Below, piece by piece: positions 5,700-28,562 of a stretch of DNA of 64,000 bases. The stretch is from Nemertoderma westbladi (lineage: Eukaryota; Animalia; Xenacoelomorpha). The stretch is from NCBI GenBank assembly GCA_032718475.1, contig JAUCBJ010005882.1, positions 1 through 64,000 of the forward strand, in the 5' to 3' direction. The notes beneath the pieces were generated by a model. That model ran no database searches. It saw only the letters and a program-made list of their open reading frames with translations, and had not been told where the DNA came from. Position 1 is the first letter of the stretch. The number at the start of each line of letters is the position of its first letter. A program made the position numbers and the translations under genes.

Positions 5700-5765
5700 C
5701 AGGTTGGTTCTCAGCTTGCTCTACGTTCTTTCATCCACTGGGGTCGATAAAATGAGTACCTGTTG
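5700..5765 (+). mobile_element. SINE central-domain fragment
   Basis: tttcatccactggggtcgataaaatgagtacc; same core as the SINE at 13190-13460. Confidence 0.5.
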
Positions 5766-7472: not shown

Positions 7473-7754
7473 AGATTCTGGCTCACCCAGCAAGGAGGAG
7501 GGAGGTGAAACTATCTCTGTTTCAAATTTCATGCAATCTCATTAAGATTTGTAGAAAAATTTGGGGGGGGGGTGGCAGTTACCTGAATAGACATGGTGTA
7601 AACAGGTAGTTTGTTATCTTTAAGTTTATTCAATGTATCAGACATATTCGAGTCTCTTGAAAGTGATGACATTAGGGTGCAGAGTAGGGTTGGTGCGCAG
7701 TAGAAATTGTTGGGCTAGCAAGGGAAGAATACGGGGTAACAAGGTGCCCTGAAT

Positions 7755-8511
7755 CGAGTGGCGGGGTGTGTTAGACACACGAGGGAACGGTCGAAACGGC
7801 GGGTTTAAGTAAGCGTGGGAAGCCAATTTTGAAAATCAGCTTTGATTGGCTGCTACATATTTGACGTCATTACAAAGTGATCTGATAATTTTTTATCTTG
7901 GTTTCTATGGGGGGAGATTTTCGATCGATTCAAATACACATTAAATTTCAATCATTTCACACGTGGCTTATATAAATTGAAAACGGAGAGTCTTGCGCAT
8001 CTTTTGGCACTACAATTATTTTAATTCACGACGAGGAAGGAAGATTGTTAAATTGCTGTTCACAATTGCAAACTCGATAGATTGTCTGACGGGTTGGCAG
8101 CACTAAGCCCTATCAGCCTAATGCAGTAGTATCTTAGCAGATACGTCATTAAATAATGGTATGACATCTAGCAGCGCCCACTGAATCGTATTAAGTTGGG
8201 TTTACCGCTGACCGGTACACAGTTACATTTTATCAATGTTCCTCATCATAAATTTAATTAATTAGACGCGCAAGACACTCCGCTTTCAATTGATATAAGC
8301 CACTTGTAAAAAGATTGAGATTTAATGTTCGAATGTGGAAAATCACTATCCATAGAAACCAAGATAAAAAATTATCAGATAACTGCGTAATGACGTCAAA
8401 TCTGTAGCAGCCAATCACAGCCGATTTTCAAAATTGGCTTCCCGCGCTTACTTAAACCCGCCATTTCGACCGTTTCCACGTGTGTTTACAAAAAACACAC
8501 CCCGCCACTCG
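7755..8511. mobile_element. MITE with ~270-bp imperfect TIRs
   Basis: cgagtggcggggtgtgtt...ttggtttctatgg is mirrored by ccatagaaaccaag...aacacaccccgccactcg. Confidence 0.85.
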
Positions 8512-8525
8512 ATAATTGTTTCTCG

Positions 8526-8590
8526 ATAATTGTTGGCGATTTGAGAATAGGATGTCTCAATTACGCAGATGACCTTCAATACTTGCCACA
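8526..8590 (+). pseudogene. Non-LTR reverse transcriptase relic (YADD motif)
   Basis: Translates IIVGDLRIGCLNYADDL; a degenerate GV-QG-like stretch lies on the other side of the MITE (~7730-7750). Confidence 0.4.
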
Positions 8591-8828
8591 TCCCCTACAA
8601 ACCAATTATAATAATTTAAGAATACAATTTTTATAACATTTTTTTTCAATATTCTTTCAACCCTTTTATTAACCTCGCTGACACACGGTAAATAGAATGC
8701 CTCGAGAATAGTGAAAAAAAGTTCTCACATTTTTTCTCATGTATTAAAAAATTCTTACGAATTTTTTATGGAGCGTTTCAAACGAAACTGGTGCTTTAAA
8801 CATTTTTACCCCCCCCCCCAGCACTTAC

Positions 8829-8956
8829 TCGTCTGCTAGTTCTTTGTTCAGCTTTACGATTCCCATCTCTTCGGCTAGTTCTTGGAATAATATTTTAATG
8901 AAGATGCGCCCGCTGCTAGTTGTATCGTGTTCATTGAGTTGAATGCAAGCCATGCA
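8829..8956 (-). CDS. CWC22: CWC22 exon (C-terminal part of MA3/MI region)
   Basis: tttag|[42 protein letters not shown]|gtaagt; matches CWC22 TTSSSRIFVKIFFQEL; 128 nt, phase 0 to 2. Confidence 0.93.
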
Positions 8957-10198
8957 CTAAAAACAAAGTTAATGTTAAATTATATATTAAAAACAAAATA
9001 AAATTTTAATAATATAGTAGGTCTCCTGGGGTGTGTTTGTGTTAATAATTAATAGTGTTGCTAACTTGGCCATGTTTTTCAAGTTTTCGTTGGATTCATG
9101 TGAAAAAACATAATTAAATCAAAAAATATAATGTTTGCTGAGATTGTTTGTTAATTGGCCAATATAAAATGTAAATATCGTAGTAACCGGGTATATTAAA
9201 TAATAATTAATCATGTAAGGTAATTATGTATTATGTTATACACTACAGTATACTATACAGACAGACACACCTCCACACCTGTCCTCCCCTACCGACCGAT
9301 AAACATAATAAAAATACACCAAGGAATAAATATATCGACGGTGCTCATTTTGCACGATACCTATGATTGCTTATTCCTATGATCCACCAGTAATATACCT
9401 GTTGTAGTTGCCTATCATGTATAAATGAATTATTTATTCCTCTATGACATTTTTCTCGTTCGAATAAATAATATTATTATATAAATAATATATTTTATTG
9501 TGTAATAAGTTTTGTATTTATAATATGTATTTTATTTGTTCACCACAGTGCTATTGTGACGTCACAAGTACAGCTAGTCACCACCATGCAACCCCCCTCT
9601 CGACCGTGACATCATGCGTGACAAGGCGGAATCTCAAAGTTAATTTAAAAATTCGACAAATTTCAAATACAACGTACGGGACGGACATTGAGTCAATAAG
9701 GTTGGCATTGATCCATATATTATAATAAAATATTTCTAAATATACCGGTAATTAAATTAATAATTTAAAATTTATTTTATAAACTAATGGTTTTTTTGTG
9801 ACGTGACGTTCGTGAGGGGGGGGGGGGGGGGTAGTAAATACTATTTACAAATTTACAATATGACCGGCTCTAAAAACAACTGTTTTCCTCAGTTTGTCGA
9901 TTTTGGCATTCTTCATTACTAAATAAAATTACTAAAATTTGTAGACCGGAAACCGCGTCACCGAATCCACAAAATATACTATTTTTGAAAAAAAAACCGA
10001 CCTGCACAAAAAGTGCCATATTTTTCGAACAAAAGGGTTTACGAAGTTATCCATTCTTTACTTAGTTTACAGAGTAAAAGATCACAGATTGTCTAACAAT
10101 TTCACAACGGTATCTTTAGGGCTATAAATATTAAAAAATACGATTTCAGGTATAAACCAAGAGTACGGTGAGCGCTACACTTATATAATTAAACTTAC

Positions 10199-10432
10199 AT
10201 TCCAGGACATTGCTCCAGAGTGTAACAGATGCGCCATCAATCTAGCGGTGTTCCGTAGCTTACCCATCTCTAGTCGATGACACGTCTCATATTGATCGCG
10301 AAAACATTTCTCGAACATACCCTTATAGAGTTGGCCCTTGAGGTTGCAGAACCGCTGTGCCAGGAGGCCGTAGAACTTCTCGTAAGATCGTTGCTGAGCG
10401 CAGCAGTCAATAATCATTTGGCATAACTCAGA
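10199..10432 (-). CDS. CWC22: CWC22 exon (MA3/MI domain)
   Basis: ttttag|SELCQMIIDCCAQQRSYEKFYGLLAQRFC...KLRNTARLMAHLLHSGAMSWN|gtaagt; 234 nt, phase 0 to 0. Confidence 0.96.
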
Positions 10433-10736
10433 CTAAAAGAAACACAATGTTTATTTAGGCTGGAATTAAATTGAAAAAAAAATCCTTGAACAACATGTTA
10501 AGGACAATTAAATTATATCAACAAAGTCCTTTGACAATTATATAATTAATACACCATTTCGGTAACTTGGTGTAACTAAAGTAACGAAAAATATATATTT
10601 ATCAAATAAAACAGCTATAACTTCAGTTATTCTAATTTGGGATCTGATTGGTTCCCCAATGCGTTTATTTTAAAAGTTTAACATTTTTAAATATATTTTA
10701 AATTAAAGCTTTCAGGCAGGAAATATAACGACTCGC

Positions 10737-11020
10737 CTCTTGACCGTCTTTAAACTCTATCTTCAGAAGTTTGTGAGCTGCTTCTTCGTAATCCAAACTG
10801 GACTGAATGGTGAGGTATATGGTTCGTCGTAGAGAGACCAGGTTGGTCTCGGTCCGATCTATGATTGGTTGTTGCTCGGTAACGGTATCAACATCCTCCC
10901 CCGATTCCTCGGAATCTCCGTCACCATCATCTTCTTCTTCCGACTCATCGAGGATTTCCTCTCGTAACGTCCTGTATCTTTCCTCGTTGACTGCAAAATC
11001 CGGATCCTCCTTGAATATGT
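10737..11020 (-). CDS. CWC22: CWC22 exon (acidic linker, MA3 start), ending at a GC donor
   Basis: [23 protein letters not shown]...[39 protein letters not shown]|gcgagt; 284 nt, phase 1 to 0. Confidence 0.93.
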
Positions 11021-11287
11021 CTAAAAAAAAATAGAAGAAAATAATAGTAGAAAAAAATATCAGAGGAAAAATTTACAAAAATTTAACTTAGTTTTGGCCA
11101 CTTATCGATTTTGAGCCGCTGATATTTCCAGAATTCGAAGACGAAATCGTAAAGAAAACCAATAAGATAAAAAAAAACAAATAAAAAAATACTCTTAACC
11201 TCTATTATGGTAAACTTACATAGAGTAAATACATTAGTAATAGTCAGTGTCACTCATATTAACAAATTTTATCGGAATGTAACTTAC

Positions 11288-11500
11288 TAAGTACATCTTC
11301 GGCGTCCTCCTTCTTAACGTCCTGGAGGGGCAGTAGATGTGTGAACTGGTCCGCGTCGTCCACCAAATCCAATTCATCCACAATCGCGGGGTAATCCTTA
11401 AAACCATCTTTACGTACGGCAAACATTACCTCGATCATATATTGAACACGTTTGTCGATTTGTGAGTCGTGAAGGATTGCTCGTAGTCTATCGTATATAG
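11288..11500 (-). CDS. CWC22: CWC22 exon (end of MIF4G)
   Basis: ttcag|IYDRLRAILHDSQIDKRVQYMIEVMFAVRKDGFKDYP...DQFTHLLPL...EDVL|gtaagt; 213 nt, phase 1 to 1. Confidence 0.96.
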
Positions 11501-11944
11501 CTGAAAGGGGAATAAGTCATTGATAGATAAATATGTTGTAAGACGTGAAATTAATCTTGATCTTGAATATATTTATCATTGAACTTATAGGAGTGTAAAC
11601 GATAAGCCGACAAACGACAACGATAACTATGGAACTGGACCGTGTGATCTTTACTCTCGTTTATTGCTCTAATTTAGTCCAATTTTAAAAAAAACACAAC
11701 TAAATAAATATATAGTATTATTGTGAATTGTGATGTTGCTTTTATCCATGAACAACAATTAGTCTAGCGTATTTGATTGGCTAAAATCATAAAATATGTA
11801 AATATTGGACAGGTTAAGAAAACATCTGATTTACATCATTCTGTGAAAAGTAGCACTTTTCAGCGTTTTGAACCGAGCGAGTGCAGTGAGGGTTGTTTAC
11901 ATAAATTAACGATCAAAAGTAGGTACAACAAGATGTATAATCAG

Positions 11945-13157
11945 TAGGGGTGTGCCGGATATCCGGCCGGGCCGAAATTCCGTCCGGATTTAGAGGAAAA
12001 AATCCGGTTCCGGCTCCGGTCGGATTTAAATTTTTTGGCCGGATTTCCATTTCAACGAATTGTTGACAAAATTTACAATTAATGTAAATTTTCAAAAATA
12101 AACTTTAAAATAAATTTTCGTTTAAATTCAAACAAAAATAGACATAAGCAAATACAATGAAATACAATACAATTTTTGTCATAGTTTGTACCGTTGGACT
12201 CAGCGTTACTAGCACTTAATTTATATAATATTACACGCCCATAATTATTAATTAATTATAATTTAATAATTATGGCCCATGTGAAGAATACCAGACTTTC
12301 TGCCGTTATATTTCACTTTGCAGTTACCCCCAAGTGAAGAATACCAGGTTTTCACTAGAAACATAGGTTACAGAAGTGCTGAATCTAACCAAAACAATAA
12401 ACGAATTAGTATATGTACAGGTTATGAGACAGAAATAAGCGCTATAAAACACTTAGTGAAGATAAATTAAAAAAAATAAAAAATCTTCATATATAAAATT
12501 ATAATAAAAAGTCGACCGAAAAGTGAAATCCTTGTATTCTTCACATGGGCGATAATTATTATTAATTAGCCCATAATTAAAACGAGTATGTCTAGGTATA
12601 TTGTTATAAATTGAGATTAAGCTTACCACTATGAATGACCAGTTTATATATTCGACAGGCAAATTTAGAAACTCTAGTAAATCCAATTTAACTCAGAGTG
12701 TATAAAAATACAACAGCTATTATTTCTTCGTTCTATTTTTCAATTTGCAATTTATATTATCAAATCAATTCATTATGATACTAAATATGCATGTACAACT
12801 ATTTGTAAATTAGGAAATTATTCCTTATTTGCAGCCAACCAACGCAAAACGCTCTTCTCGTCCCCTTTAGATAATTGACATATACTTACTAATCTACTTC
12901 TGAATTCATAATATGAATGAAGTCAAAGTCCATATCACATGACCTTGCTGATCATGATTAGCACGTTAGGTTCTGTATCTGTCGACGCAGGACCTAACGC
13001 ACAAAGGACCAAATGATGGGTTCCCCTTCCTCAGTTCTGTTCATTCATACAGGTACCATAGCTTATCGGGAAAAACAAAAAATTCGGATTTTTTTTACAA
13101 ATCCGGCCCCGGCTCCGGCCTCGACGGTTTAAAAATAGCCAATCCGGCACATCCCTA
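11945..13157. mobile_element. hAT-like non-autonomous element
   Basis: TIR tagggg(t)gtgccggat / atccggcacatcccta, subterminal ccgg repeats, perfect 8-bp TSD ATAATCAG (11937-11944, 13158-13165). Confidence 0.85.
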
Positions 13158-13189
13158 ATAATCAGTTTATACGGCGGGTAAAAATGCTA

Positions 13190-13460
13190 TATGAATGGGA
13201 GATTGTTTTAGGCTCATTAAGCCAAGGAATGCCTGTTCATCACCATGGGGGATTTTCCACAGTAAACCCTTCCACTCTGTTTCCCAAGTTGCTTTGGTTC
13301 CCATTTATCGACCACCGAAGGATGAAGGCCAGAGTTGGGCTAGGCTGCAGCAATTAAAGTACTGTGCCCAAACAGTGCTGTCCACTCTAGGGATCGAACC
13401 AAGGCTTCCTAATTGGAAGCCCATGAATGTCACCTCACCACTAGACCAGGCTTAACGACC
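13190..13460 (-). mobile_element. tRNA-derived SINE
   Basis: Minus strand has A-box-like tggtctagtgg, B-box ggttcgatcc, then the core ttcatccttcggtggtcgataaatgggaacc; superfamily not verified. Confidence 0.65.
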
Positions 13461-13731
13461 ATTACCGGTATATATCTGCCTACTTACGTGGTACAGATGG
13501 ACACTAAAACCACCTAAAGTCCTCCTGCATACAAAGTCCCATAGCTTATAACATAATCGGTACGGTAAATACATTTTATAGTCCGGTACATGAGTGAATA
13601 AGGTTCAAAGATAAGCGGGTTTATATACCGGAATCGATTCAAATTGTATAATAAAAGAAAGAACCGCAGCGTTTCTCCATTTCGTACCGGACTTTAGATA
13701 CTTCCGTTTCCGGTACATCTCTAACACATAC

Positions 13732-13867
13732 CGTGCATTCCTCTGGGTGTGACGTCATTCAGTTTATGACCGCATTCTTTCAGAAAACCTACAGCCATTT
13801 CGACTGAGTCATTGGTTGGGTTCTCCAGCAACAAAGTTAGTATTTCCAAAGCGATAATCTCATGGGC
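13732..13867 (-). CDS. CWC22: CWC22 exon (MIF4G)
   Basis: ttttag|[45 protein letters not shown]|gtatgt; 136 nt, phase 0 to 1. Confidence 0.96.
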
Positions 13868-13936
13868 CTAAAACGAAACATTACAAAGAAATATAATTAA
13901 TAAAAAACATAATAAAAAATGATATTTCAATATATT

Positions 13937-15290
13937 ATGGGTCAATGCCAACCATATTGATATCAGATTAATATCCCTGCTGAATATAATTCCTGTGAAC
14001 AAATAAACATTGATTTGTAGTAAATTTGAGATATTAGAAATACAAATAAAAAATTAACGTGGTCCGATTTTTTGTCACTTATGTGACACTCAGTAAATGA
14101 TTAATTTAATGGCATATAAATTGTCAAATATGAGCCATTAACCCGATGTGTTAACACTCCCACTAATATTCTTCCATATGAATAAGTTAGATGGCAATTT
14201 TAGGTGGTTAATCAGTGCATATGAATAATTGCGCGAGAGTCTCCAAAATGGCCCAAAAAAGTGTCCCTTAACGGAGGTTTTTTTTATCAGAAAACGCGAA
14301 CTCAAAGATTTTCAGTGAGACTGCTCCGTAAACATTTAATTGGCCAGGTTGAAGAAACTGCCCTGTCCCATAACGTGACATGATGTCCCATACTTGACAT
14401 TGTATTGGGGACAGAAGTTAATCATGGTCTAACTTACATATAATTAATGGTTAGGGGCTTACCAGTCACAGATAAACTGTAACCTGAATTGACAACAGAC
14501 GAAATTAATTTATTACCAAATTAACTATTTGTGGAAAGGGTTTTTAGATTGGGACAGTAGTTGAGAGTGGGATGTAAGTTGGGAATGGAACAGGAGTTGA
14601 ATTCTAGTACGGGAGTTGTTTGAAGAATTTTATGATTTGTTTTTAATTGGAAAATAAATGTCAAAATTTATAATAATCGTTTCCATGCAAATTCCGTCCT
14701 ATACTATATCAATATGTCCCATACATGACATAAAAAACTGTCTATTTACATTTTCAAATTAATTTTTTTAATATAAAATAACGGTTTTCATTTGACCATA
14801 ATATGTAACATTTTTGTGTATCACATTGTTATTAACAGGAAAAAAAACAACTAGCCCCACTTTTCACGGCAAAGTTGCCAGAAAGTGACACTTTGTCTTG
14901 TCACTCTATGTATAATTTATTTTTAGTGACAGAATTTTTAAATTTTATCTCACCAGAAAACTTTCCACTTCGATCTGACATCTCTTGCCGGACACCTCAA
15001 TACCCTATTAAAGGACTGCTACTTCAATTTTTCAAGAATATGGACATAAAGTACGAAAAAAATATTTATATATTTCCCATACGTGACAAAAAAAATTTTC
15101 TAAATTTTTGCATTCCAGAGCGATTCTCTCAATAACGGCCAAGAAATTTGTGGGGCACTTTATGGTTTCATATGCAGAAATTATCGCTCTTTCTAACCAT
15201 GACTATGGTATATTCTCAAAGTTGATTTCAAAATTCAACAAATTTCAAAAATCACGTACGGGACATTGGTCAATATGGTTGGCATTCATT
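13937..15290. mobile_element. Non-autonomous TIR element
   Basis: tcaatgccaaccatattga ... tcaatatggttggcatt; a related right end occurs at ~9650-9720. Confidence 0.6.
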
Positions 15291-16399
15291 GAAATTCATT
15301 GAAAACAAGTTTTCTTGTAAATAACTTGTGTAAAGGATGTCCTTAAAGCAAGAAAGTATCAATAAGTTTGAAAGTGTCACCTGACATGTCAAGGAGCCGA
15401 TGGTATAAGTTAAATAATTTGGGATCAAAACTTTAATAAAATTACATTCCGATAGAGTTAGCACAACCACCACCACCACCAGGGCACCAGCTCTACAAAA
15501 TGGTGAATAATGAAATAAAAACCACCGGGAAGTTATGTTAAGATTATACAATGTTAATAATAAATTATATTATGGAATGTTTGAATCCATATCATCTCAA
15601 AATAAATTACCTCAAAATAATTATCCCTACTAATATAACTCTCTGATGAGAGTTTTAATAGTTCAATAGTTGAGAATATAAATATCGGTAATTTTACCAA
15701 GTGATGTGGGGCGAGTCAAAACTGCCACCCATCATCTAACTGTTAATAATTATACTATGGCCGTTTTCTAAAATTCTGTGTGTGTTGGAAGCTATAATAT
15801 AACTAGCCATTGTATAATTATAATTGTTCGCTAAAAGACGACTTACATCTTTTGCTGCACGAAGGCTCGCCCCACTCGTGTTATAGTGCAGTAACAGGCT
15901 ATCCTACTTAACCCACAGGAGTATTAATAGGGTAGAAGCGGGATTCAGTAATTAGCTTGGGGTGGGGGGTGGGGGGGTGGGTGGGTGGGTGAAAGGTTGA
16001 GTTTCGCAATTTTCCCCGCCCGCTCCGTCTATTACCCTTAAAGTATAAGGGTTAGGGATATTACTAGATGGAATGGACGGGAAGATGGGGGGGGGGGGGG
16101 GGGGGAGACAATACTAAAACAATACGGTCAGAAACCGTAGAATGGAAACATCCAAATAAAGTTAGCCAATGACAAGAGGGTTCATAGAGTACGAGTACAC
16201 TGCAGTTGTGTGGTAAAACACTAAATCTCGAAAATAAGCGTTTAGAGAAAAATTCGAGAACATTTTTAAATAGTCAAGATCGGGTGATTTTCATATCACA
16301 GGGAAGAGGAAAACTTATTTAATTAATTAATTTCCCTAATGGTTCTTCCACATTCTTGAAAACATGTCGCTTAAAGTTTAGGAAACGAACGTAACTCAC

Positions 16400-16622
16400 C
16401 ACTTCCTGGTTGACGAGATGAGCCAAGAACCTAGAGGAAGACAGACTGGGGGTCTTTAGGTTCCGTCTGTAGCCTTTACGGAAGGTGAGAATCAGTCGCT
16501 TAACGACCAGTTCGCCAATCTGTGGAAACTTCGTGTTTATAACGGATACGAGAGCCGCGTAGACGTTAGTGAAGGTAGGTGAGGCTGACTGGGCCTGGAT
16601 TACAGACCGGGAGAATAAACCT
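16400..16622 (-). CDS. CWC22: CWC22 exon (MIF4G); source of the 78-bp array
   Basis: ccctgtag|(R)[56 protein letters not shown]...[10 protein letters not shown]|gtgagt; 223 nt, phase 2 to 0. Confidence 0.95.
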
Positions 16623-16992
16623 CTACAGGGAAATAAAGCGGAGTTAGTGAAGGTAGGTGAGGCTGACTGGGCCTGGATTACAGACCGGGAGAATAAACCT
16701 CTATAGGGAAATAAAGTGGAGTTAGTGAAGGTAGGTGAGGCTGACTGGGCCTGGATTACAGAGCGGGAGAATAAACCTCTATAGGGAAATAAAGTGGAGT
16801 TAGAGAAGGTAGGTGAGACAGACTGGGCCTGGATTACAGATCGGGAGAATAAACCTCTATAGGGAAATAAAGTTGAGTTAGTGAAGGTAGGTGAGTCTGA
16901 CTGAGCCTGGATTACAGACCGGGAAAATAAACCTCTATAGGGAAATAAAGTGGAGTTAGTGAAGGTAGGTGAGGCTGACTGGGCATGGATTA
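16565..16992 (-). repeat. 78-bp CWC22 splice-acceptor/exon-start tandem array, proximal block (~5.5 units including the real exon start)
   Basis: Minus-strand unit TCCACTTTATTTCCCT(A/G)TAG + AGGTTTATTC...ACCTTCACTAAC; acceptors at 16623, 16701, 16779, 16857, 16935. Confidence 0.95.
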
Positions 16993-18362
16993 TATAAGCA
17001 GTAGGTAATTATTCTATAACACAATACAATCCTGTAATCCAGTGTATAATATTAGTAGTACAACAATCCAGCAATATTATAATTAGTAATACAGCGGTAC
17101 AATAATTAGGCAGAACAACCTCACTCTGCCAGCTTTACATGTAGGCCTAACCCTCCACCTGTCACACTGTACTGTACATCTGTATGTATCTCTTAACCTC
17201 AGTTCAGCCAGTCCGGTACCGGTACAACCCACATTCGTACATCCCTCTATTGGGCCATGGCCTCTTATTTCCCCTTATACTCCCCCCAGTTCATTAATGA
17301 ACTAATCTTGAATTGTCACACATGTGGAAATCATAATTTTACTTTCAGTTTATATTAATCCCATATCTCATAGGTGGTCTTGACACTCGTCCCGTACGCA
17401 ATCTATAGTGCTCTCCTGGTTCTTCAACTGCGTTTGCATTGGTATAATCGACAGTTTCCTCCAAACTTTCATTTGCAACAATATTATCTTCTTCATTTGA
17501 GCTAGATTCACTGTTACTATCACTATAATTCTGGTGTTGTACGGGTACTGTTGTGCAGTACTGAGCAGTACTGAGATTATTTGGGCTTATCTGCCCACAT
17601 TCCGCTTTCCTAATGTCTTGTATATGTCGCTTGTATCCACCTGCTATAACTGACCAAGAATCTGGAACCGCCTCAATTATCAGTGGGCCTCTCCATTTTG
17701 TGTGGCACTTTACATGTTGTTTCGGCTTAATATATACAAATTCCCCAATTTTAAACTTATATTCCATTTCCGGTTCTGTTGCAATAACTTCCGTAACACC
17801 TGGTAATTTGGTGATATGATTTGAGGTAAGCAGTTCCCATGGTGACTTATTTCCATGTGATGCAGTCCTGTTATACCAAAAGGCAATTTGCGTGGGTTCT
17901 TTGCCTGTTCTTGCTGCCCATGTCTTAATAGTTCTATGGGATCTTTCAACTATATTCCCTTGTGGTCTATAAGTGCACGAGGTCCGGTGTTTAACTTCCC
18001 ATTTTTCCAAAAATTGTTTTGTTTCTTTACTCCTAAAAGCGGGTCCATTATCAGACAATAACTCTTCTGGGGGCCCCCACTCAACAAATACTTGCTGCAA
18101 TTCCTTTATAACTGCCTCTGCAGTTTCTTTATTAACTTTACGCCATATAGTAAACCCGGTAGCGCAATCGACCATTGTCAGATATTGGTTTTTATTTTCA
18201 TCCTCTGTGAAGTCAGTTGATAGTCTTTCCCACCCTCGCTCCATCTTACAAGTTCCTTTTTTCACTGCAGTAACAGGATTTGGATCTATGTATTTGCATT
18301 TATTACAGCTATTGCACACTTCTTTGACTAATTTCCTTGTCACATTCATTGTCTGTAATTCT

Positions 18363-18611
18363 CTAAGTGCTTAGGCTGTAGCGGAGTACCCTAAACTTTT
18401 AAATTGTGAACTAATTTTTAAATTTAATTATATTTTAACGCGATTTTAATTGAATATACTGCTGAAGACGCCCGCGAGGGTGAAATGGCCATACGGTAAA
18501 TAATTAACTTCATTTTTTATATATCCACGTGGTGAAAGACCCTTCCTTGCCTTTATTAATCCTGTAATTATGAATACGCCACGTAAAACGTTGTTCCGGT
18601 TAATCCAAAAC
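18363..18611 (+). mobile_element. 249-bp hammerhead-bearing insertion (retrozyme- or Penelope pLTR-like)
   Basis: Bounded by the direct repeat ctaagt (ACTTAG on minus); removal restores integrase DKLRELQTMNVT; contains a hammerhead core. Confidence 0.75.
18457..18498 (+). ncRNA. Minimal type I hammerhead ribozyme
   Basis: UACUG-CUGAAGA-C-GCCC(GCGA)GGGU-GAA-AUGGCCAU-A^CGGUA: stem I UACUG/CGGUA, GNRA-capped stem II, palindromic stem III, NUH site AUA. Confidence 0.8.
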
Positions 18612-18901
18612 CTAAGTTTATCGAATTCCGTATCATTGTTACATAACATTTGAGTACGATCCGTATCTGTATGAGCAATTTGATGAATCTCTTTAATTCT
18701 CTCAATCACGTGTGCTTTGTTGCAAGGAACATTGTGTGCTTGTATTCCTATTCCTGCTATTTCCCTTATGTTTTTATTTTCGTCATTCCCCTTTAACCAT
18801 GATTTCGGAACTCTGGTTAAGCAATCTGCCAGGTTCTTAGCAGATGTAATTTGCTGTATTGTCACTTTTATGCCATATTCATCCACCGTCCTCTTTAATA
18901 G

Positions 18902-19309
18902 CTATAATCGTCTTCTTATTAACATTTTTGATAGACCTTTTGTCTTCAAACGGTGCTCATCATTCAACATTGATTTGATCCAACCATATGCTGAGCTCGA
19001 ATCTGTATATATCGTAATTGTTTTAAGACCCCACTCAATAGCAATGTTTAACCCCTCAATGATCGCAGTCAGTTCTGCCGCATTTATATGCTCAGGGTCA
19101 TCGTCTTTTCTCAACCATGCTCTATCCTCGGCGACTACCCCACCAATCTTCACTAACGCCCCAATGGCTATTGTACTTGCGTCGGCCCATACTTCTCCTA
19201 CGTGAGTCTTCATTATTGGCCACTGACCTTGTGAGGGATCTACTTTATTGACTCTATCTACCACCTCAATGAGTTTCTTTCTAGTGTTCTCACTGATAGG
19301 ATCATCCAT
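18902..19309 (-). pseudogene. Gypsy RNase H
   Basis: VWADAS...HINAAELTAI...IYTDSS motifs; flanked by stops. Confidence 0.88.
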
Positions 19310-19321
19310 GCTAACTGATGA

Positions 19322-20130
19322 TTATTGGCGTTGTAGCCACCCACATGCAACGCGCAACCAACCAGAAATTAAATAATTACCTCGGAGTTGACCAATCACA
19401 GCCAATAATTTTCGATGGGTCACTATCCCTTGAATAGATTCTATTGTCGGTAAATCGCTGTCTCTGATCCATCGACCATCCTTCACATACACTCCCAATA
19501 TTCGAGCCCCATTTTTAACCTCCACTGGTTCTTTAGATTCAAGCCCAAATTTCTTCAAATGATTTCTAACATCATCAGCTGTAATTCCAGAATCCAGGTC
19601 CACATAGACATCATCACGGAAACTTTCTGTGGCTCTCTCAATCTTCTCGTCTTGTTTTAGCACAGTCTCTACAATATTGTCAAGTATCTTTGGTGCTGGG
19701 CCCAGTCCAAAACCAAGCTTGGTCATACAATATCGTTTGTCCTTATACTCAACAACTTGGTATGGATGCAGTTTAGAATGCACATTGACCTGCATATAGG
19801 CCCACTTCAAGTCAATCAGTGCTGTCCTTTCACCCATGGTAGCCCACTTTCTCAGTTTCTCAACACTGGTAGCTGATTCCGTTCAAGGTTCATTTATAAT
19901 AAATTGATTCAATTTTCGAAAATCCATTATCGGACGTACTCGATCTTTTTTGGTTCATTTTTGTACATTAGAGGAATGAGTGCTTTTGTTTCCCCGTGAA
20001 ATTCTTTTAACCATTCACCCATGCCAATATCAAACTTCTCCCGTAGTTCCTGGGGAATTTTGTATTGCTTTACTCTATTAGTCAGTTTGTCTGGGTTTTG
20101 TCCAGTGATGAATATATACTCTGTTTCCCA
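19322..20130 (-). pseudogene. Gypsy reverse transcriptase (frameshifted N-terminal part)
   Basis: LIDLKWAYMQV, KLGFGLGPAP, SFRDDVYV; upstream RVRPIMDFRKLN in another frame. Confidence 0.88.
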
Positions 20131-20568
20131 TTATATTGAGATTGTAATCAAAGCTTCAGGATTAATATTTCCAACTGCACTCATTAATTGTAAATTTGGG
20201 ACTGAATTAAACAGCACACTAACAGTGTCTTTCGGCCCACATTGAATGGAGATCCCCCCCATTTTTTTTATAATGTTCCATCCTATAACTAAGTCTAAGC
20301 CCCCAACCATGTCTACAATAACTAAAAATTCACATTTAGGCAAAGTGACATTATTAATTCTAATTTGTGTTTCAATTGTCCCCATAATCATATCTGTTTT
20401 TGTACCATCTAACATTGAAATAGTGTTTCCAGCCATCTTTCGATCTAAAATCCCATTAATCCTAGCACTACATTTATGTGAGACAATCGACTGCCTACAA
20501 CCAGTATCTATTAACCCATCTACTGCAATTCCACCACATTCTGCCTTTATAATTGGCAGATCGCCCAT
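20131..20568 (-). CDS. Gypsy aspartic protease
   Basis: GLIDTGC active site and DLVIGWN motif. Confidence 0.85.
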   Translation of the reverse strand: MGDLPIIKAECGGIAVDGLIDTGCRQSIVSHKCSARINGILDRKMAGNTISMLDGTKTDMIMGTIETQIRINNVTLPKCEFLVIVDMVGGLDLVIGWNIIKKMGGISIQCGPKDTVSVLFNSVPNLQLMSAVGNINPEALITISI

Positions 20569-20587
20569 TATTTTAGGGAAACGGCCA

Positions 20588-21610
20588 CTAGCGCATATGC
20601 CGTTCCCCTCTACTCGTTTCCCTAGCTCTGTAGCCTTCCACTTGGCCGCATGGAACTATCTGCTCCAGTATGTTTGCAGTACAGTTGCGAGCTATGTAGT
20701 CTGGTCCTCCACATCTAAAACAATTACTGGCAATCGAATCCCTATAGTTGTGGTAACTTGATTCTCCCCAACATTCTCGTGCATAATGTCCACTTTTTCC
20801 ACATCTGAAGCAGTTAATCCCAAATCCTTGGCCTCGACCCCGGGATATATTTACTTGCCCTCGGCCAATTCTGAAATTTCCTCCATCTCTACCACGACCA
20901 GTTGTAAGATTGCCTATCTCTCGTCCCCGACCGAAACTTGTCCCATCTCGCTCTCGATGGAAACTTCCACCTCCTCGGGGATTTTGGAAATTTCCAGGAA
21001 ATCCTCCAGCAGCTCCAACAGATCCAATTGGATACGGTAGGCCGACAACTAATCCCCCTGCAGCTCCTACGGTGCCAGAATCCTTATGTTGTTCTGACAA
21101 TAATCTGCGGGCCTGAACAATTAGATTGTTCAGTTCCAATCCATCAACTAAAGCTTTGACCTCCCCAGCTATCCTTTCAGGAAGAACACTGACGAACTGC
21201 AGAGCAATAATTATATTAGCTACAACTGTCTCTACCGCGTTTAGTTTTATTTCATCAGACACTAATCCAAACAGTCGTTTTAAATCGGCTAGGTACGTAT
21301 CCGCTGCCTCCCCATCCTGCAGTTTCCGTATCTTAAACAGTTCGTAGGCAGTATACTCGCTAACAGCAAATGCAGATATTAATGCCTTCTTTATTAGGTC
21401 ACAATCTTGCTTTTCGGCGTTAGATAACTGACTCACTACTTCATACGCTGACCCATCTAACGACAATCGTAAATAAGTTGCCCGCGCCTCCTCTTTTAAT
21501 CCAGCCTCGACCACTAATACATCATAAGTGTCATTAAATATCGCCAGCCACTGACTCGGATCTGTACTACCATTATACTTCTTAACATCATCTGAGAGTT
21601 TTGGAGCCAT
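20588..21610 (-). CDS. Gypsy gag with CCHC zinc knuckles and RGG tract
   Basis: 340-aa intact ORF; CFRCGKSGHYAREC and a second degenerate knuckle. Confidence 0.9.
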   Translation of the reverse strand: MAPKLSDDVKKYNGSTDPSQWLAIFNDTYDVLVVEAGLKEEARATYLRLSLDGSAYEVVSQLSNAEKQDCDLIKKALISAFAVSEYTAYELFKIRKLQDGEAADTYLADLKRLFGLVSDEIKLNAVETVVANIIIALQFVSVLPERIAGEVKALVDGLELNNLIVQARRLLSEQHKDSGTVGAAGGLVVGLPYPIGSVGAAGGFPGNFQNPRGGGSFHRERDGTSFGRGREIGNLTTGRGRDGGNFRIGRGQVNISRGRGQGFGINCFRCGKSGHYARECWGESSYHNYRDSIASNCFRCGGPDYIARNCTANILEQIVPCGQVEGYRARETSRGERHMR

Positions 21611-21832
21611 GTTGCCCGGTTAGCTTATAAGATATAATAAGTAATATCAATCGTAATATCATTAATATCAATCACACACTACTCCAGAATCAGGTTTATA
21701 TTAACTCCTGCACTCAATACACCACCGGTAGGCCTACTCAGTCGTTCCACCCTAACTATCTACCTGTTTTAATTTACCGCCACCTTATATATATCGCAAC
21801 TCAACCCACAGAGTCTCTTATTGTACCTTATA

Positions 21833-24800
21833 GATTACAGACCGGGAGAATAAACCTCTATAGGGAAATAAAGTGGAGTTAGTGAAGGTAGGTGAGGCTG
21901 GCTGGGCCTGGATTACAGATCGGGCGAATAAACCTCAATATGGAAATAAAGTGGAGTTAGTGAAGGTAGGCGAGACTGACTGGGCCTGGATTACAGAGCG
22001 GGCGAATAAACCTCTACAGGGAAATAAAGTGGAGTTAGTGAAGGTAGGTGAGGCTGGCTGGGCCTGGATTACAGATCGGGCGAATAAACCTCTATAGGGA
22101 AATAAAGTGGAGTTAGTGAAGGTAGGTGAGGCTGACTGGGCCTGGATTACAGATCGGGCGAATAAACCTCTATAGGGAAATAAAGTGGAGTTAGTGAAGG
22201 TAGGTGAGGCTGACTGGGCCTGGATTACAGATCGGGCGAATAAACCTCTATAGGGAAATAAAGTGGAGTTAGTGAAGGTAGGTGAGGCTGACTGGGCCTG
22301 GATTACAGATCGGGCGAATAAACCTCTATAGGGAAATAAAGTGGAGTTAGTGAAGGTAGGTGAGGCTGGCTGGGCCTGGATTACAGATCGGGCGAATAAA
22401 CCTCTATAGGGAAATAAAGTGGAGTTAGTGAAGGTAGGTGAGGCTGGCTGGGCCTGGATTACAGATCGGGCGAATAAACCTCTATAGGGAAATAAAGTGG
22501 AGTTAGTGAAGGTAGGTGAGACTGGCTGGGCCTGGATTACAGATCGGGCGAATAAACCTCTATAGGGAAATAAAGTGGAGTTAGTGAAGGTGGGTGAGGC
22601 TGGCTGGGCCTGGATTACAGATCGGGCGAATAAACCTCTATAGGGAAATAAAGTGGAGTTAGTGAAGGTAGGTGAGACTGGCTGGGCCTGGATTACAGAT
22701 CGGGCGAATAAACCTCTATAAGGAAATAAAGTGGAGTTAGTGAAGGTAGGTGAGGCTGGCTGGGCCTGGATTACAGATCGGGCGAATAAACCTCTATAGG
22801 GAAATAAAGTGGAGTTAGTGAAGGTAGGTGAGACTGGCTGGGCCTGGATTACAGATCGGGCGAATAAACCTCTATAGGGAAATAAAGTGGAGTTAGTGAA
22901 GGTAGGTGAGGCTGGCTGGGCCTGGATTACAGACCGGGAGAATAAACCTCTACAGGGAAATAAAGTAGAGTTAGTGAAGGTAGGTGAGGCTGACTGGGCC
23001 TGGATTACAGACCGGGAGAATAAACCTCTATAGGGAAATAAAGTGGAGTTAGTGAAGGTAGGTGAGCCTGACTGGGCCTGGATTACAGACCGGGAGAATA
23101 AACCTCTATAGGGAAATAAAGTAGTGTTAGTGAAGGTAGGTGAGGCTGACTGCGCCTGGATTACAGACCGGGAGAATAAACCTCTATAGGGAAATAAAGT
23201 GGAGTTAGTGAAGGTAGGTGAGGCTGACTGGGCCTGGATTACAGATCGGGCGAATAAACCTCTACAGGGAAACAAAGTGGAGTTAGTGAAGGTAGGTGAG
23301 GCTGACTGGGCCTGGATTACAGACCGGGAGAATAAACCTCTATAGGGAAATAAAGTGGAGTTAGTGAAGGTAGGTGAGGCTGACTGGGCCTGGATTACAG
23401 ATCGGGCGAATAAACCTCTACAGGGAAACAAAGTGGAGTTAGTGAAGGTAGGTGAGGCTGACTGGGCCTGGATTACAGAGCGGGCGAATAAACCTCTACA
23501 GGGAAACAAAGTGGAGTTAGTGAAGGTAGGTGAGGCTGACTGGGCCTGGATTACAGACCGGGAGAATAAACCTCTACAGGGAAATAAAGTAGAGTTAGTG
23601 AAGGTAGGTGAGGCTGACTGGGCCTGGATTACAGAGCGGGCGAATAAACCTCTATAGGGAAATAAAGTGGAGTTAGTGAAGGTAGGTGAGCCTGACTGGG
23701 CCTGGATTACAGACCGGGAGAATAAACCTCTATAGGGAAATAAAGTAGTGTTAGTGAAGGTAGGTGAGGCTGACTGCGCCTGGATTACAGACCGGGAGAA
23801 TAAACCTCTACAGGGAAACAAAGTGGAGTTAGTGAAGGTAGGTGAGGCTGACTGGGCCTGGATTACAGATCGGGCGAATAAACCTCTACAGGGAAACAAA
23901 GTGGAGTTAGTGAAGGTAGGTGAGGCTGACTGGGCCTGGATTACAGACCGGGAGAATAAACCTCTACAGGGAAATAAAGTAGAGTTAGTGAAGGTAGGTG
24001 AGGCTGACTGGGCCTGGATTACAGAGCGGGCGAATAAACCTCTATAGGGAAATAAAGTGGAGTTAGTGAAGGTAGGTGAGGCTGACTGGGCCTGGATTAC
24101 AGAGCGGGCGAATAAACCTCTATAGGGAAATAAAGTGAGTTAGAGAAGGTAGGTGAGGCTGGCTGGGCCTGGATTACAGACCGGGAGAATAAACCTCTAT
24201 ATAGGGAAATAAAGTGAGTTAGAGAAGGTAGGTGAAGCTGACTGGGCCTGGATTACAGACCGGGAGAATAAACCTCTATAGGGAAACAAAGTGGAGTTAG
24301 TGAAGGTAGGTGAGGCTGACTGGGCCTGGATTACAGACCGGGAGAATAAACCTCTATAGGGAAATAAAGTGGAGTTAGTGAAGGTAGGTGAGACAGACTG
24401 GGCATGGATTATAGAGCGGGAGAATAAACCTCTATAGGGAAATAAAGTGGAGTTAGTGAAGGTAGGTGAGGCTGACTGCGAGCCTGGATTACAGAGCGGG
24501 CGAATAAACCTCTATAGGGAAATAAAGTAGAGTTAGTGAAGGTAGGCGAGACAGACTGGGCATGGATTACAGACCGGGAGAATAAACCTCTATAGGGAAA
24601 TAAAGTGGAGTTAGTGAAGGTAGGTGAGGCTGACTGCGAGCCTGGATTACAGAGCGGGCGAATAAACCTCTATAGGGAAATAAAGTGGAGTTAGAGAAGG
24701 TAGATGAGGCTGACTGCGAGCCTGGATTACAGAGCGGGCGAATAAACCTCTATAGGGAAATAAAGTGGAGTTAGTGAAGGTAGGTGAGGCTGACTGGGCC

Positions 24801-25692
24801 TGGATTACAGACCGGGAGAATAAACCTCTATAGGGAAATAAAGTGGAGTTAGTGAAGGTAGGTGAGGCTGACTGGGCCTGGATTACAGAGCGGGCGAATA
24901 AACTTCTATAGGGAAATAAAGTGGAGTTAGTGAAGGTAGGTGAGGCTGACTGGGCCTGGATTACAGACCGGGAGAATAAACCTCTATAGGGAAATAAAGT
25001 AGAGTTAGTGAAGGTAGGCGAGACAGACTGGGCATGGATTACAGACCGGGAGAATAAACCTCTATAGGGAAATAAAGTGGAGTTAGTGAAGGTAGGTGAG
25101 GCTGACTGCGAGCCTGGATTACAGAGCGGGCGAATAAACCTCTATAGGGAAATAAAGTGGAGTTAGAGAAGGTAGATGAGGCTGACTGCGAGCCTGGATT
25201 ACAGAGCGGGCGAATAAACCTCTATAGGGAAATAAAGTGGAGTTAGTGAAGGTAGGTGAGGCTGACTGGGCCTGGATTACAGACCGGGAGAATAAACCTC
25301 TACAGGGAAATAAAGTAGAGTTAGTGAAGGTAGGTGAGGCTGACTGGGCCTGGATTACAGACCGGGAGAATAAACCTCTATAGGGAAATAAAGTGGAGTT
25401 AGTGAAGGTAGGTGAGGCTGACTGGGCCTGGATTACAGACCGGGAGAATAAACCTCTACAGGGAAATAAAGTAGAGTTAGTGAAGGTAGGTGAGGCTGAC
25501 TGGGCCTGGATTACAGACCGGGAGAATAAACCTCTATAGGGAAATAAAGTGGAGTTAGTGAAGGTAGGTGAGGCTGACTGGGCCTGGATTACAGACCGGG
25601 AGAATAAACCTCTATAGGGAAATAAAGTGGAGTTAGTGAAGGTAGGCGAGACAGACTGGGACTGGATCAAAGACCGGATCAAGTCAATCCCT
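21833..25692 (-). repeat. 78-bp CWC22 splice-acceptor/exon-start tandem array, distal block (~49 units)
   Basis: Near-identical units; 654-aa open frame 21935-23899 of (RGLF[SA][20 protein letters not shown][YC])n; small indels at ~24130-25200; most diverged unit at 25635-25692. Confidence 0.95.
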
Positions 25693-25847
25693 GGGGAATT
25701 AAATAAGATAATATTAAAAGCATATAAACTATTTAGAAATTAAATAGAACTCTTGAAATTCCAAATAGTAACTGCCAAGAATAGACAATTTTTAAATGTC
25801 AGTTTAAAATAATATAAAAAAAAATAATTATATATAAATAAACTCAC

Positions 25848-25976
25848 CTGCCACGGATAATGTTCTCTTGAAACAGTTCCTTAACGATCTCAATAATATT
25901 AGATATATTGATTTTGTTAATTAAACCGTGGATAGATTTACGGAGGGCCTCCCACGACAGGCGCTGGTACAAAGCG
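25848..25976 (-). CDS. CWC22: CWC22 exon (start of MIF4G)
   Basis: tttcag|(S)[42 protein letters not shown](R)|gtgagt; 129 nt, phase 2 to 2. Confidence 0.96.
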
Positions 25977-26490: not shown

Positions 26491-27527
26491 GCAGAGGCAG
26501 TTAAGTTAGCAGCTGCAGAAACAGTTCCTGTATACCCTCGAAACAGGAAACGGGCCCCCTGGATTGACAACAAAATTCAGAAGTGTCGAAATGACCTCTA
26601 CAAGGCGCAGAAAGAGTCCCGACTCAAACAGACTACAGCGGCCAAGAATGCAGTTAAGGCTGCATCCTAGGTCCCTGAACAGGCAGTACTCTGTTAATTT
26701 ACAGGAGCTAATAAACTAACAGGTTGATGCCATCAATGATGCTGACGACAGCAGGCAATCATCCCAGGCATGGAGATCGATCAACTTGGTTGCTGGTCGA
26801 AAAAGCCAACCAACCACCAAGGTTAAGGCTGAATCACCAGCCGATCGCCTCAATGGTTGGAAGGCCCACTTTGAAAAGCTCCTCAATAGTGACCGGGTAT
26901 TGCCTGATAACTTTATAGAAGTAAAAGGATCATGGATCGGGAAGTCAGATGAGGACCTTCGAATACGTAAGGGAAAGGCATGGGCAGCCTTGAATAGGCT
27001 TTCCAGGATTTGGAAGTCACCGAGAATTAATCGGAAACTTAAGGTCCGATTATTTAGAGCAGCAGTAGTTCCAGTACTCCTCTATGGGAGTCCATGCTGG
27101 GCTCTAACTGCTGAGGACACCAAATCTCTGGATGGCACATTCACAAGAATGCTACGCCGAGTTCATTGTGTCAAGTACAATGCACAGCACACATCTTCAA
27201 CCAGACACTATATAACATTGGAGGTGTCTCATTGGTTCCCCCAAGCTTGACACTAGAACAAAATCGCCTCCGCTTTGCAGGACATTGCTTTCGCCGTGAG
27301 GACCAGCCAGTGCATAATCTTGTACTTTGGCAGCCTCATGGAGTGAATAAGCATGGTGGACAGCCCATGACTTTCTTGAGACGCATCTTAAAGGACACTG
27401 GCCTTGAAGATGCGGATGATCTAGCAAATGTCATGGGTGATAAGGAGTTGTGGCGGTGCAATTTTACGATAAGCCGGCACAGCATTCTTAAAAATGCAGC
27501 TGCAATGCAGCATGCCGATCCTAGTAG
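26491..27527 (+). mobile_element. RTE-like LINE, 5'-truncated and lacking the RT core
   Basis: WKAHFEKLLN...GSWIG...IRKGKAWAALNRLSRIWKS...LLYGS...RLRFAGHC; (TAG)n tail; 12-bp TSD TACTAAATAGAA (26479-26490, 27528-27539). Confidence 0.88.
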
Positions 27528-28190
27528 TACTAAATAGAATGAATAGCCCAAACGGATAGTAGGGCAGTCTACCCAGAAAATAAGGCTAGTTTTATGGAGC
27601 TAAAACTAATCTGTTTTGTTTATTATGGGTAGGTTGGATGTCTCGAATGAAAAGGGACCCTGTAATGGCTGTATCAAAATTGTAATTAGCTGAACCAATA
27701 ATCGAACAATTAACGATTGTACACATCGCATGCAATATATTAGTTTCTGCATTTATGTGTGTTGCACTCATGATGAATACAGTTTTGTACTCGAAACGTT
27801 TGTTGGTTAGTTTTATTAAACAATGAGTTTTAGGATATTCGCGCATGTTAATCTTTTCCTTATACTGTCCATTGCATCTGCCACTGAAATATGCGAGCGT
27901 CTAAATATTTTCTAACCAAAACAATAAACCAAATAGGAGAACGCATGTTATATTATAGCAATGTTAAAGGAACAAGAACTAATGCCTATACTAGTGCTAT
28001 ATGCTAAACTAATGCCTATACTAATGCCTATACCCAAGAAAAAACGAAACGCAAACTGGAAATAAACAATTGTGCATTAAAATATCCTGGTACAAATATA
28101 TAAATACACAATCCACAAAGATGCCGGTATTGTAAATTTATATAATATAGAGCACTACATACTACAGTAGGCCTACTATACAACACAAAC

Positions 28191-28562
28191 CTGGACTTGT
28201 CGGACGCATCTGTTTGCAGAGCCCGTAGACGATGGGGCGGGATATAGGCGCCGCCAATGAGGCCAGACAGAGTCTCTGAGCTCGGTGTGGGTCGGGCTGC
28301 CGTAACAGACGAGGTGGCAGCAGTCTGTCCACTGGGACCAGAACCAGAAGCAGCTATGGGATCTGGAACATTTTCTCTAGGGAGGCTTACATTAGATAGT
28401 CCTTTGACCTCTTCACTTGCCTCCCCTGTTTTAGACATCATCGTTGATTGATCTTCGACTGCATCGCCGACTTCCGAACCTTTACTTCCGATTTCCCCAT
28501 CTTCTGGTTCAGATGAATGTTCCGAAACAGATTGTTCGGCCATAGAACTGGCACTGGAAGAG
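28191..28562 (-). CDS. CWC22: CWC22 exon (disordered N-terminus to GGAYIPP motif)
   Basis: ...LIGGAYIPPHRLRALQTDASDKS|gtttgt matches conserved GGAYIPPxxLR; acceptor atctttag at 28563; phase 2 joins the next exon. Confidence 0.88.

Follow-up and report, generated by a model that had tools for sequence, protein, structure and literature searches.

Intron 2 of the CWC22 gene of Nemertoderma westbladi, which lies on the minus strand of the 64,000-nucleotide stretch of contig JAUCBJ010005882.1 analysed here (the window), contains 55 head-to-tail units of ~78 bp, each composed of 20 nt of intron end followed by the first 58 nt of exon 3. Since just one copy of the unit is present in the only spliced transcript found, the array is likely to be a tolerated repeat, of a kind known from lancelets, rather than a regulatory device.

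The CWC22 gene and its acceptor array

The locus was compared with the public runs X1, X2, X4, X5 and X6, X3 being left out. X1 and X2 are DNA runs of two samples from two studies; X4 comes from a third sample (S3) and is without an RNA label on record, its spliced state having been recognised from its contigs. The features on which the argument relies are the following:

28191..28543, minus strand: CWC22 exon 1 (first coding exon), from tblastn to homologues and the open spliced model
25848..25976, minus strand: CWC22 exon 2, 129 nt, matched without any difference by the X4 contig over 25848-25979
25632..25717, minus strand: diverged 5' edge unit with a CAG acceptor, exon part from 25690, from sequence comparison
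21833..25631, minus strand: distal array of 49 near-identical units, from TRF, unit listing and frame check
16993..21832, minus strand: broken LTR retroelement in sense orientation, from domain pieces and target duplication
16643..16992, minus strand: proximal array, i.e., the remainder of a split unit and four complete decoy acceptors, from unit listing and frame check
16643..16647, minus strand: predicted branch point of the working acceptor, CTAAC with its A at 16644 (-22), from sequence and motif scan
16623..16642, minus strand: intron end of the working acceptor, with its pyrimidine tract and TAG; the X4 contig match ends at the AG (16624)
16400..16622, minus strand: CWC22 exon 3, 223 nt, MIF4G domain, matched by the X4 piece 16399-16624 with 0 differences
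13867-13732, 11500-11288, 11020-10737, 10432-10199 and 8956-8829, minus strand: CWC22 exons 4-8, with the MA3 domain, from homologue search, domain search and spliced model

CWC22 encodes a splicing factor that loads the exon junction complex (PMC4482076). The gene is identified by the succession of a MIF4G and an MA3 domain and by its best matches, which are CWC22 orthologues; the MIF4G of exon 3 is a fragment scoring under the curated Pfam cut-off (E 2.9e-4), the same exon matches human CWC22 structures with E 1e-29, and the MA3 domain reaches 23.6 bits vs. a cut-off of 23.2. Exon 1 has a predicted ATG at 28543 and a GGAYIPP motif, and its end is matched by the loose end of the spliced X4 contig at 25979; intron 2, 9,225 nt in length, starts at the exon 2 donor CAG|GTGAGT (25847), and the internal exons measure 128-284 nt. 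That only the last acceptor yields a normal CWC22, as a sequence-only reading of this DNA had held, is borne out by the splice from exon 2 to 16622, which gives an open frame of 566 aa having 59-63% identity to three CWC22 homologues, to which the exon 2/exon 3 junction of the spliced contig aligns without insertion. No exons after exon 8 were found in the window, and two homologue slices of the conserved C-terminal core past MA3 had no match within its 64 kb; the X4 contig runs 470 letters further than exon 8.

Unit listing and TRF (period 78; 49.2 and 5.5 copies with 95% and 94% matches) substantiate the ~55 tandem copies, with the same 20 + 58 nt composition, that had been counted earlier. 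The 55 units comprise one diverged unit at the 5' edge and 54 near-identical ones, whose exon parts start at 25611...21857 (49 units, the last of which is cut by the retroelement) and at 16934...16622 (five units); the boundary inside the unit matches the splice boundary of the spliced X4 contig. Every unit opens with AG|GTTTAT, and 14 of the 54 share 58 nt identical to the last unit. The acceptor TAG is kept in 53 of the 54 near-identical units, that at 21935 having TTG. All 54 acceptors are preceded by CTAAC, its predicted branch A lying at -22, so that the earlier proposal of a branch-point motif supplied by the exonic end upstream of the next AG stands. The CTAAC predicted to serve the working acceptor belongs to the coding tail of the copy before the last.

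The same reading had invoked the rule that the spliceosome usually takes the AG that comes first downstream of a branch point. This rule leads to no paradox, since every unit possesses a predicted branch point of its own and no AG intervenes before that unit's acceptor; the question is rather which of the branch points, and which acceptor, the splicing machinery recognises.

The consequences of using another acceptor, which had also been correctly anticipated, depend on its position. All 49 near-identical distal positions read into a stop, and splicing to the edge acceptor (25690) would remove an intron of 157 nt and give at once the frame R-D-stop. The edge unit, which has 46/58 identities with the working unit and a 1-nt insertion, is also found on a second allele of its region in X2. 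The four decoy acceptors adjacent to the working one (16934, 16856, 16778 and 16700) would add 78-312 nt (26-104 aa), in frame and without a stop, yielding exons of 535, 457, 379 and 301 nt, respectively.

Reality of the array

Evidence from the runs consists of assembled contigs of short reads, examined at both edges of the array. Two DNA contigs of X1 have depths of 530.6 and 390.2, i.e., 25.9x and 19.0x the single-copy depth of ~20.5, and the corresponding mean 31-mer multiplicities in the window are 26.0 and 19.0, X1 being possibly the source of the assembly. As the copy number in the assembly agrees with the depth of the short reads, the array is neither a chance occurrence nor an assembly artefact, and both its existence and its copy number are confirmed. 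In both X1 and X2, the DNA contigs enter the array for 30 nt and end at 16594. The acceptor-to-acceptor segments carry 30 distinct labels among 53 (one being the segment that contains the retroelement) and include a repeated four-unit block; X2 carries other unit variants. A single contig of 108 nt, a piece of the array, was found in X5, best read as low-depth DNA, and 0 contigs of X6 matched at the locus.

CWC22 appears to be single-copy: its exon bins have single-copy depth in the DNA runs, with 0 DNA contigs at the splice joints. Thus the two circumstances under which the sequence-only reading would have failed, an assembly artefact and an untranscribed duplicate, were both checked and neither was found. 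The view that the array is artefactual or the locus a silent duplicate of a CWC22 located elsewhere, in favor of which it can be said that each of the two DNA samples may be a source of the assembly and that the last exons are absent from the window, is already largely refuted and deserves next to no credence, given the agreement of depth with multiplicity, the diversity of the segments, the break at one and the same base in two samples, the single-copy exon bins devoid of DNA contigs at the splice joints, and a spliced contig differing from these exons at 2 listed places.

The spliced transcript

CWC22 is expressed. The spliced X4 contig (2,559 nt, depth 544.5) has five joints at the predicted introns 3-7, which support exons 4-8, and joins exon 2 to one 58-nt unit, with 0 differences, followed by the unique remainder of exon 3. 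The X4 depth in the bin 16414-16665 is 455.9, exactly the share of this contig (544.5 x 211/252), and therefore no other X4 contig lies on the repeat. The linker, the edge unit and the 157-nt intron are covered by no X4 contig, and no alternative junction occurs among the contigs of this one spliced run, assembled contigs being able to hide minor forms. Other acceptors may thus be used at a low level, and a short allele in sample S3, consisting of the edge unit and one further unit, would give the same contig. An X4 joint between 25611 and 25848, which skips 236 nt, was considered as use of the second acceptor and rejected: the 58 nt of the unit in question are identical to those of the last one, and the contig continues into sequence that, within the window, follows the last unit alone.

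The retroelement and the drift of the units

Elements of the Ty3/gypsy type have the order gag, protease, reverse transcriptase (RT), RNase H and integrase, are flanked by a target-site duplication and possess two near-identical long terminal repeats. The element inserted within a unit of the array has a 5-bp target duplication (21837-21833 and 16992-16988) and retains pieces of a zinc knuckle, an aspartyl protease, DUF7047, RNase H and integrase; zf-CCHC, protease, RNase H and rve stand in gag-to-integrase order, and the piece expected to be RT matched DUF7047, not the Pfam RT core. Near-identical terminal repeats were not found, the best blastn matches between the two ends of the element being 14 and 18 nt, so that the two repeats have only their ends in common.

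Signs of drift are 1-2 nt indels in 7/49 distal units, one lost AG and the insertion of the retroelement within a unit. No selection on the decoys was detected: none of 18 distinct substitutions falls in CTAAC, i.e., in 5 of 57 nt, a result of low power (P ~0.19) that reveals no protection of the motif, nor was protection of the frame detectable in the four proximal units (P ~0.54, likewise of low power). Synonymous changes account for 9/18 of those in the unit variants vs. 27-31% expected (P 0.03-0.07), an excess that pure neutral decay does not predict. Outside the array region, tandem repeats make up 21.5% of the window.

As to the seed of the duplication, a CTAAC microhomology had been suggested and could not be shown; the edge intron end, scoring 0.0 against the linker, is no closer to it than six unrelated CWC22 intron ends (-4.5 to 4.0).

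Choice of the last acceptor

The array is probably a tolerated mirage minisatellite whose last acceptor is selected through exon definition, with nonsense-mediated decay (NMD) clearing distal errors and the decoys lacking a selected function. Such an array would have originated from a small duplication spanning the intron/exon boundary, and would then have been expanded and homogenised by unequal exchange, with the edge unit diverging. The spliceosome would define exon 3 from its own donor and take the nearest, i.e., the last, acceptor. Exon definition is suggested by two circumstances: only the 223-nt exon fits the 128-284 nt range of the internal exons, its four neighbors measuring 301-535 nt, and only the last unit runs on directly to the remaining part of exon 3 with its donor. 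As an additional filter, NMD or nuclear decay would act on errors at the 50 distal positions, all of which read into stops; NMD cannot explain the absence of the four proximal in-frame forms from the main contig, since these carry no stop. We infer that the decoys have no selected function. The array may moreover be difficult to lose, since a crossover in the exon part that reduced it to one unit would leave an edge acceptor carrying a stop and a frameshift, and since the predicted branch point of the working acceptor lies in the coding tail of the previous copy.

As far as use of the last site is concerned, the earlier suggestion that exon definition picks the last of ~55 sites agrees with the one spliced contig. 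Exon definition may not suffice, since in human data the preference for the upstream 3' site is described as “significantly reduced” by exon definition, not reversed, this site being still preferred overall (PMC9225289). Furthermore, the 157-nt intron closed by the edge acceptor has a size at which intron definition would favor that acceptor.

A rather unlikely alternative is that acceptors are chosen loosely and NMD carries most of the burden, a sizeable fraction of the transcripts being spliced to the first two or other distal acceptors and then destroyed; the array would in that case cost expression without performing a function. Such a situation is compatible with the stops following 50/50 distal positions, with the invisibility of decayed products to steady-state contigs and with the short introns (157 and 236 nt) closed by the first two acceptors, at which size the intron-proximal site is favored in human data (PMC9225289). 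Yet the four proximal in-frame acceptors produce forms that are not NMD targets, and the main contig nevertheless has one unit and no X4 contig contains the linker; in addition, use of a distal site would leave 5-9 kb to be treated as exon.

It is improbable that the array acts as a locked-in fidelity sensor, whereby weaker exon definition would divert splicing to the poison acceptor at 157 nt or to MIF4G isoforms longer by 26 to 104 aa, the array length tuning the output of CWC22.

Even less credit can be given to the decoy or isoform-tuning device entertained by the sequence-only reading, in which selection would maintain the array to regulate CWC22 by adding 26-104 aa to MIF4G or by routing transcripts to decay. 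The persistence of TAG (53/54) and CTAAC (54/54) in the near-identical units, the open frame of the four proximal units, the slightly raised share of synonymous variants and the occurrence of the array in two samples could be viewed in this light, and feedback is conceivable given the role of CWC22 in exon junction complex loading and splicing (PMC4482076). However, no alternative form or linker contig exists among the X4 contigs, the retention of signals and frame does not exceed chance, and the class of repeats to which the array likely belongs is described as leaving splicing undisturbed and is known from unrelated genes (PMC3087553, PMC3902484), so that nothing links it to a splicing gene.

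A two-step re-splicing, in which exon 2 would join an upstream unit whose AG|GT would then serve as donor for a further splice to the matching position in the last unit, is highly improbable: although its product would be identical to the X4 contig, and the GTTTAT with which the units begin resembles the GTTTGT donor of CWC22 intron 1, the unit donor scores 5/11 vs. a U1 consensus, the eight real CWC22 donors scoring 6-9, and a GAG situated two bases after a TAG would have to serve as acceptor in the second step.

Significance

Since the array is of a known kind, its significance is modest. As a tolerated repeat it offers a large natural test case for the choice of one among 54 near-equal 3' splice sites, and, since four in-frame decoys would escape NMD and the 50 distal positions end in stops, exon definition and NMD are separable at one locus. 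Such arrays also represent a warning to annotators, as they give rise to false exons and, in this case, to a false 734-aa repeat ORF at 21935-24139. The lock-in, if true, would illustrate how an essential gene can be left with a neutral duplication that is no longer reversible. A surprise would arise only if decoy use were regulated, and nothing in the present data shows regulation.

Comparison with known systems

No case of an acceptor array, or of such an array with CWC22, was found in the literature searched by title or beginning of the abstract. A donor-side relative is the 37-bp VNTR of human F7 intron 7, likewise a boundary-spanning minisatellite with identical potential sites, of which the exon-adjacent one alone is used and the others are silent; unlike CWC22, it concerns the donor, and oriented scanning was invoked and tested with mutant constructs (PMC1557585). 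In human CBS, the 844ins68 duplicates an intron end and an exon start, thereby creating a second 3' splice site, and the downstream copy enters the mRNA; unlike the array, it has two copies (52 nt of intron and 16 nt of exon), and the choice is tied to a cis variant (PMC7490669). As in the Rogers model of intron gain by tandem duplication (PMC3087553, PMC2812944), an AG|GT occurs in the CWC22 units two bases past the start of the exon part, but neither a new intron nor a cassette exon was seen at CWC22.

The closest counterparts are the mirage minisatellites of amphioxus, described in the globin genes BflGb6 and BflGb9, Adh3, troponin C and PGBD5 (PMC3087553, PMC3902484), to which class the CWC22 array likely belongs. 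In BflGb6, the intron's 3' end and the exon's 5' part are repeated in tandem as in CWC22, with concerted evolution, diverged boundary units and undisturbed splicing. The CWC22 unit, arranged head-to-tail across the intron/exon boundary of its host, is of minisatellite size (period 78; 10-160 bp in the described cases), and the array resembles the amphioxus ones in that many, not all, copies keep the AG (TAG in 53/54), in that the interior has evolved in concert (94-95%) with a diverged boundary unit (46/58), and in that a normal mRNA is made, splicing being undisturbed in one spliced run, in which minor forms may be hidden and whose sample may carry a short allele. On the other hand, CWC22 has 55 units vs. 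3-6 in BflGb6, a count on which alignments in the supplement of PMC3087553 may bear. The CWC22 array also differs from the amphioxus mirages in that it has a 78-bp unit, is split by a 4.8-kb LTR element, resides in a core splicing gene and carries its predicted branch point in the coding tail of the unit.

The CWC22 gene and the array in its second intron

Exon 3 of the minus-strand gene, which carries the MIF4G domain, matches human CWC22 structures (E 1e-29) and is 68–77% identical to CWC22 homologues (among 120 matches listed of 438), and the spliced model of eight exons yields an open frame of 566 amino acids with 59–63% identity to three homologues; the conserved end of the CWC22 core was not found within the 64-kb window. 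CWC22 is described in PMC4482076 as acting in splicing and in EJC loading. Intron 6 (10433-10736, minus strand) is of the GC-AG type with a GC donor, as confirmed by the joint in a spliced contig from a third sample (X4). Intron 1 contains retroelement-like fragments at 26720-27537 on the plus strand, opposite to the gene, with a DUF6451 match below its cut-off; resembling fragments lie near 49983-50600 and 53310-53900.

The 3′ end of intron 2 (minus strand; donor 25847, working acceptor 16623, 9,225 nt) is a tandem array of period 78, each unit combining 20 nt of intron end with the 5′-most 58 nt of exon 3. Its components are:

25690, minus strand: diverged 55th unit at the array's 5′ edge, preceded by a CAG acceptor (46/58 identities, one extra base)
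25611 to 21857, minus strand: exon-part starts of 49 near-identical distal units
21832-16993, minus strand: broken LTR retroelement inserted within one unit
16934 to 16622, minus strand: exon-part starts of 5 near-identical proximal units

CTAAC, whose A at −22 is the predicted branch point, lies upstream of all 54 near-identical acceptors, and the TAG acceptor is kept in 53 of them. The script-based unit search and the motif scan bear out the counts and coordinates of the sequence-only reading.

Of six sequencing runs, five contain the test stretch, and contigs of five were placed on the window. Two DNA runs (X1 and X2), from two samples and two studies and both possible sources of the assembly, gave contigs ending at 16594, 30 nt within the array. 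Within the array, two contigs from X1 reach depths of 530.6 and 390.2, i.e., 25.9x and 19.0x the single-copy depth (~20.5), the corresponding 31-mer multiplicities in the window being 26.0 and 19.0, and X2 contains another allele of the edge region in which the edge unit is likewise present; the array is confirmed. The single-copy depth of the CWC22 exon bins and the finding of no contigs at CWC22 splice joints in the DNA runs speak against a second copy of the gene, whether processed or clean.

The acceptor used

X4, from a third sample and study and labelled DNA by guess, is read as RNA because it displays splice joints and because its depth falls almost to zero (0.82 and 0.43) in two intron bins that are single-copy. 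A contig of 2,559 nt (depth 544.5) has five joints at predicted introns 3–7 and a sixth joining exon 2 to one 58-nt unit, its loose end matching exon 1. Since this unit, which shows no differences from the last copy, enters the unique remainder of exon 3 at its other end, and since the depth of the bin over the array's 3′ edge (455.9) is exactly equal to the contig's share, the main CWC22 mRNA of this sample has one unit, i.e., is normal, as judged from one run and from contigs, which drop rare forms. The array itself is unseen in the X4 sample, where an allele of two units would produce an identical spliced contig.

Spliced models agree with the earlier proposals that the four adjacent acceptors (here 16700, 16778, 16856 and 16934) would add 26–104 amino acids in frame and that distal acceptors lead to stops, the latter at 49/49 distal near-identical positions; the edge acceptor gives R-D-stop and closes an intron of 157 nt. 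The exon is 223 nt long from the last acceptor and 301–535 nt from its four neighbours, the other internal exons of CWC22 being shorter than the latter (128–284 nt).

Each unit brings a predicted branch point of its own, and no AG falls between any of these and its acceptor, so that the first-AG scanning rule holds everywhere and decides nothing. Only the last acceptor is followed by the remainder of exon 3 together with the exon 3 donor, and exon definition is the likeliest selector. The edge acceptor, with its short intron, should be attractive under intron definition. NMD could mask mis-splicing at the 50 distal positions; the four neighbour acceptors are in frame, so that NMD cannot be the reason why the main contig lacks them. 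The literature backs exon definition in part: in PMC9225289, human splice sites nearest across the exon are preferred when the flanking introns are long; for 3′ sites under those conditions the upstream preference is reduced, not reversed.

The retroelement within the array

The retroelement is flanked by a 5-bp target duplication and retains zinc-knuckle, protease, RNase H and integrase pieces. Its terminal repeats, 21832-21626 (~207 bp) and 17279-16993 (~287 bp), are alike only at their ends, with matching termini, and recombination inside the array may have made the element a chimera of two related ones. Eight sense AATAAA hexamers occur in it (16993-21832, minus strand), within intron 2; together with an upstream decoy acceptor (any repeated acceptor other than 16623) they could delimit a shortened terminal exon, a form found in none of the listed X4 contigs.

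Drift, selection and persistence

Indels affect 7 of the 49 distal units, the AG is lost in one and the retroelement landed in one. CTAAC is hit by none of the 18 distinct exon-part substitutions (P about 0.19) and the four proximal decoys are free of indels (P about 0.54), both within chance and of low power. Nine of these 18 substitutions are synonymous against 27–31% expected (P 0.03–0.07), an excess that counts against pure drift and may stem from exchange with coding alleles or the edge unit. The commonest amino-acid variant of the units (21833-25631, minus strand) is S to A, in 21 units; among 13 distinct homologue peptides, 6 have A.

Outside the array, 21.5% of the window consists of tandem repeats, so that such arrays arise readily here; the suggestion that CTAAC microhomology seeded the duplication could not be shown on comparison of intron ends. 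Collapse to one unit via the exon part would retain the edge acceptor with its stop, and the coding tail of the previous copy (16647-16643) is predicted to contain the working branch point; for these reasons, particular to the CWC22 locus, we infer that loss of the array may be difficult. A regulatory role finds no support here and is improbable, as is the reading of the array as a locked-in fidelity sensor whose length tunes CWC22 output.

Other repeats in the window

58226-59418, plus strand: array of 31-bp units, 38.5 copies, a donor-like CAG/GTGAG in most
63228-63997, reaching the window end: 34-bp array, 22.6 copies, some minus-strand units with CTAAC then CAG
33762-35764 and 40356-41986: complex repeat arrays, mutual reverse complements ~5 kb apart

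The 31-bp array starts ~150 bp past the stop codon of a 540-aa ORF without introns (56454-58076), and no exon boundary was established at 58226-59418; no gene was tied to the array at 63228-63997. The reverse-complementary pair resembles the arms of a foldback element.

Comparison with known systems

Titles and abstract beginnings in the literature revealed no such array in CWC22. The array is a mirage, i.e., a minisatellite spanning an exon/intron boundary, and thus of a known kind; as a new example it is fairly large, and its host gene is notable. Further mirages occur in Adh, troponin C and PGBD5 (PMC3902484), and that of the amphioxus globin BflGb6 displays concerted evolution, diverged boundary units and undisturbed splicing (PMC3087553). 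Like the CWC22 array, BflGb6 repeats the intron 3′ end and the exon 5′ part, although two haplotypes contain 6 and 3 units, respectively, as opposed to 55. The VNTR of human F7, whose extra sites are silent (PMC1557585), is donor-side whereas the CWC22 array is acceptor-side, and human CBS 844ins68 (PMC7490669) is an acceptor duplication of two copies, compared with the 55 units of CWC22.
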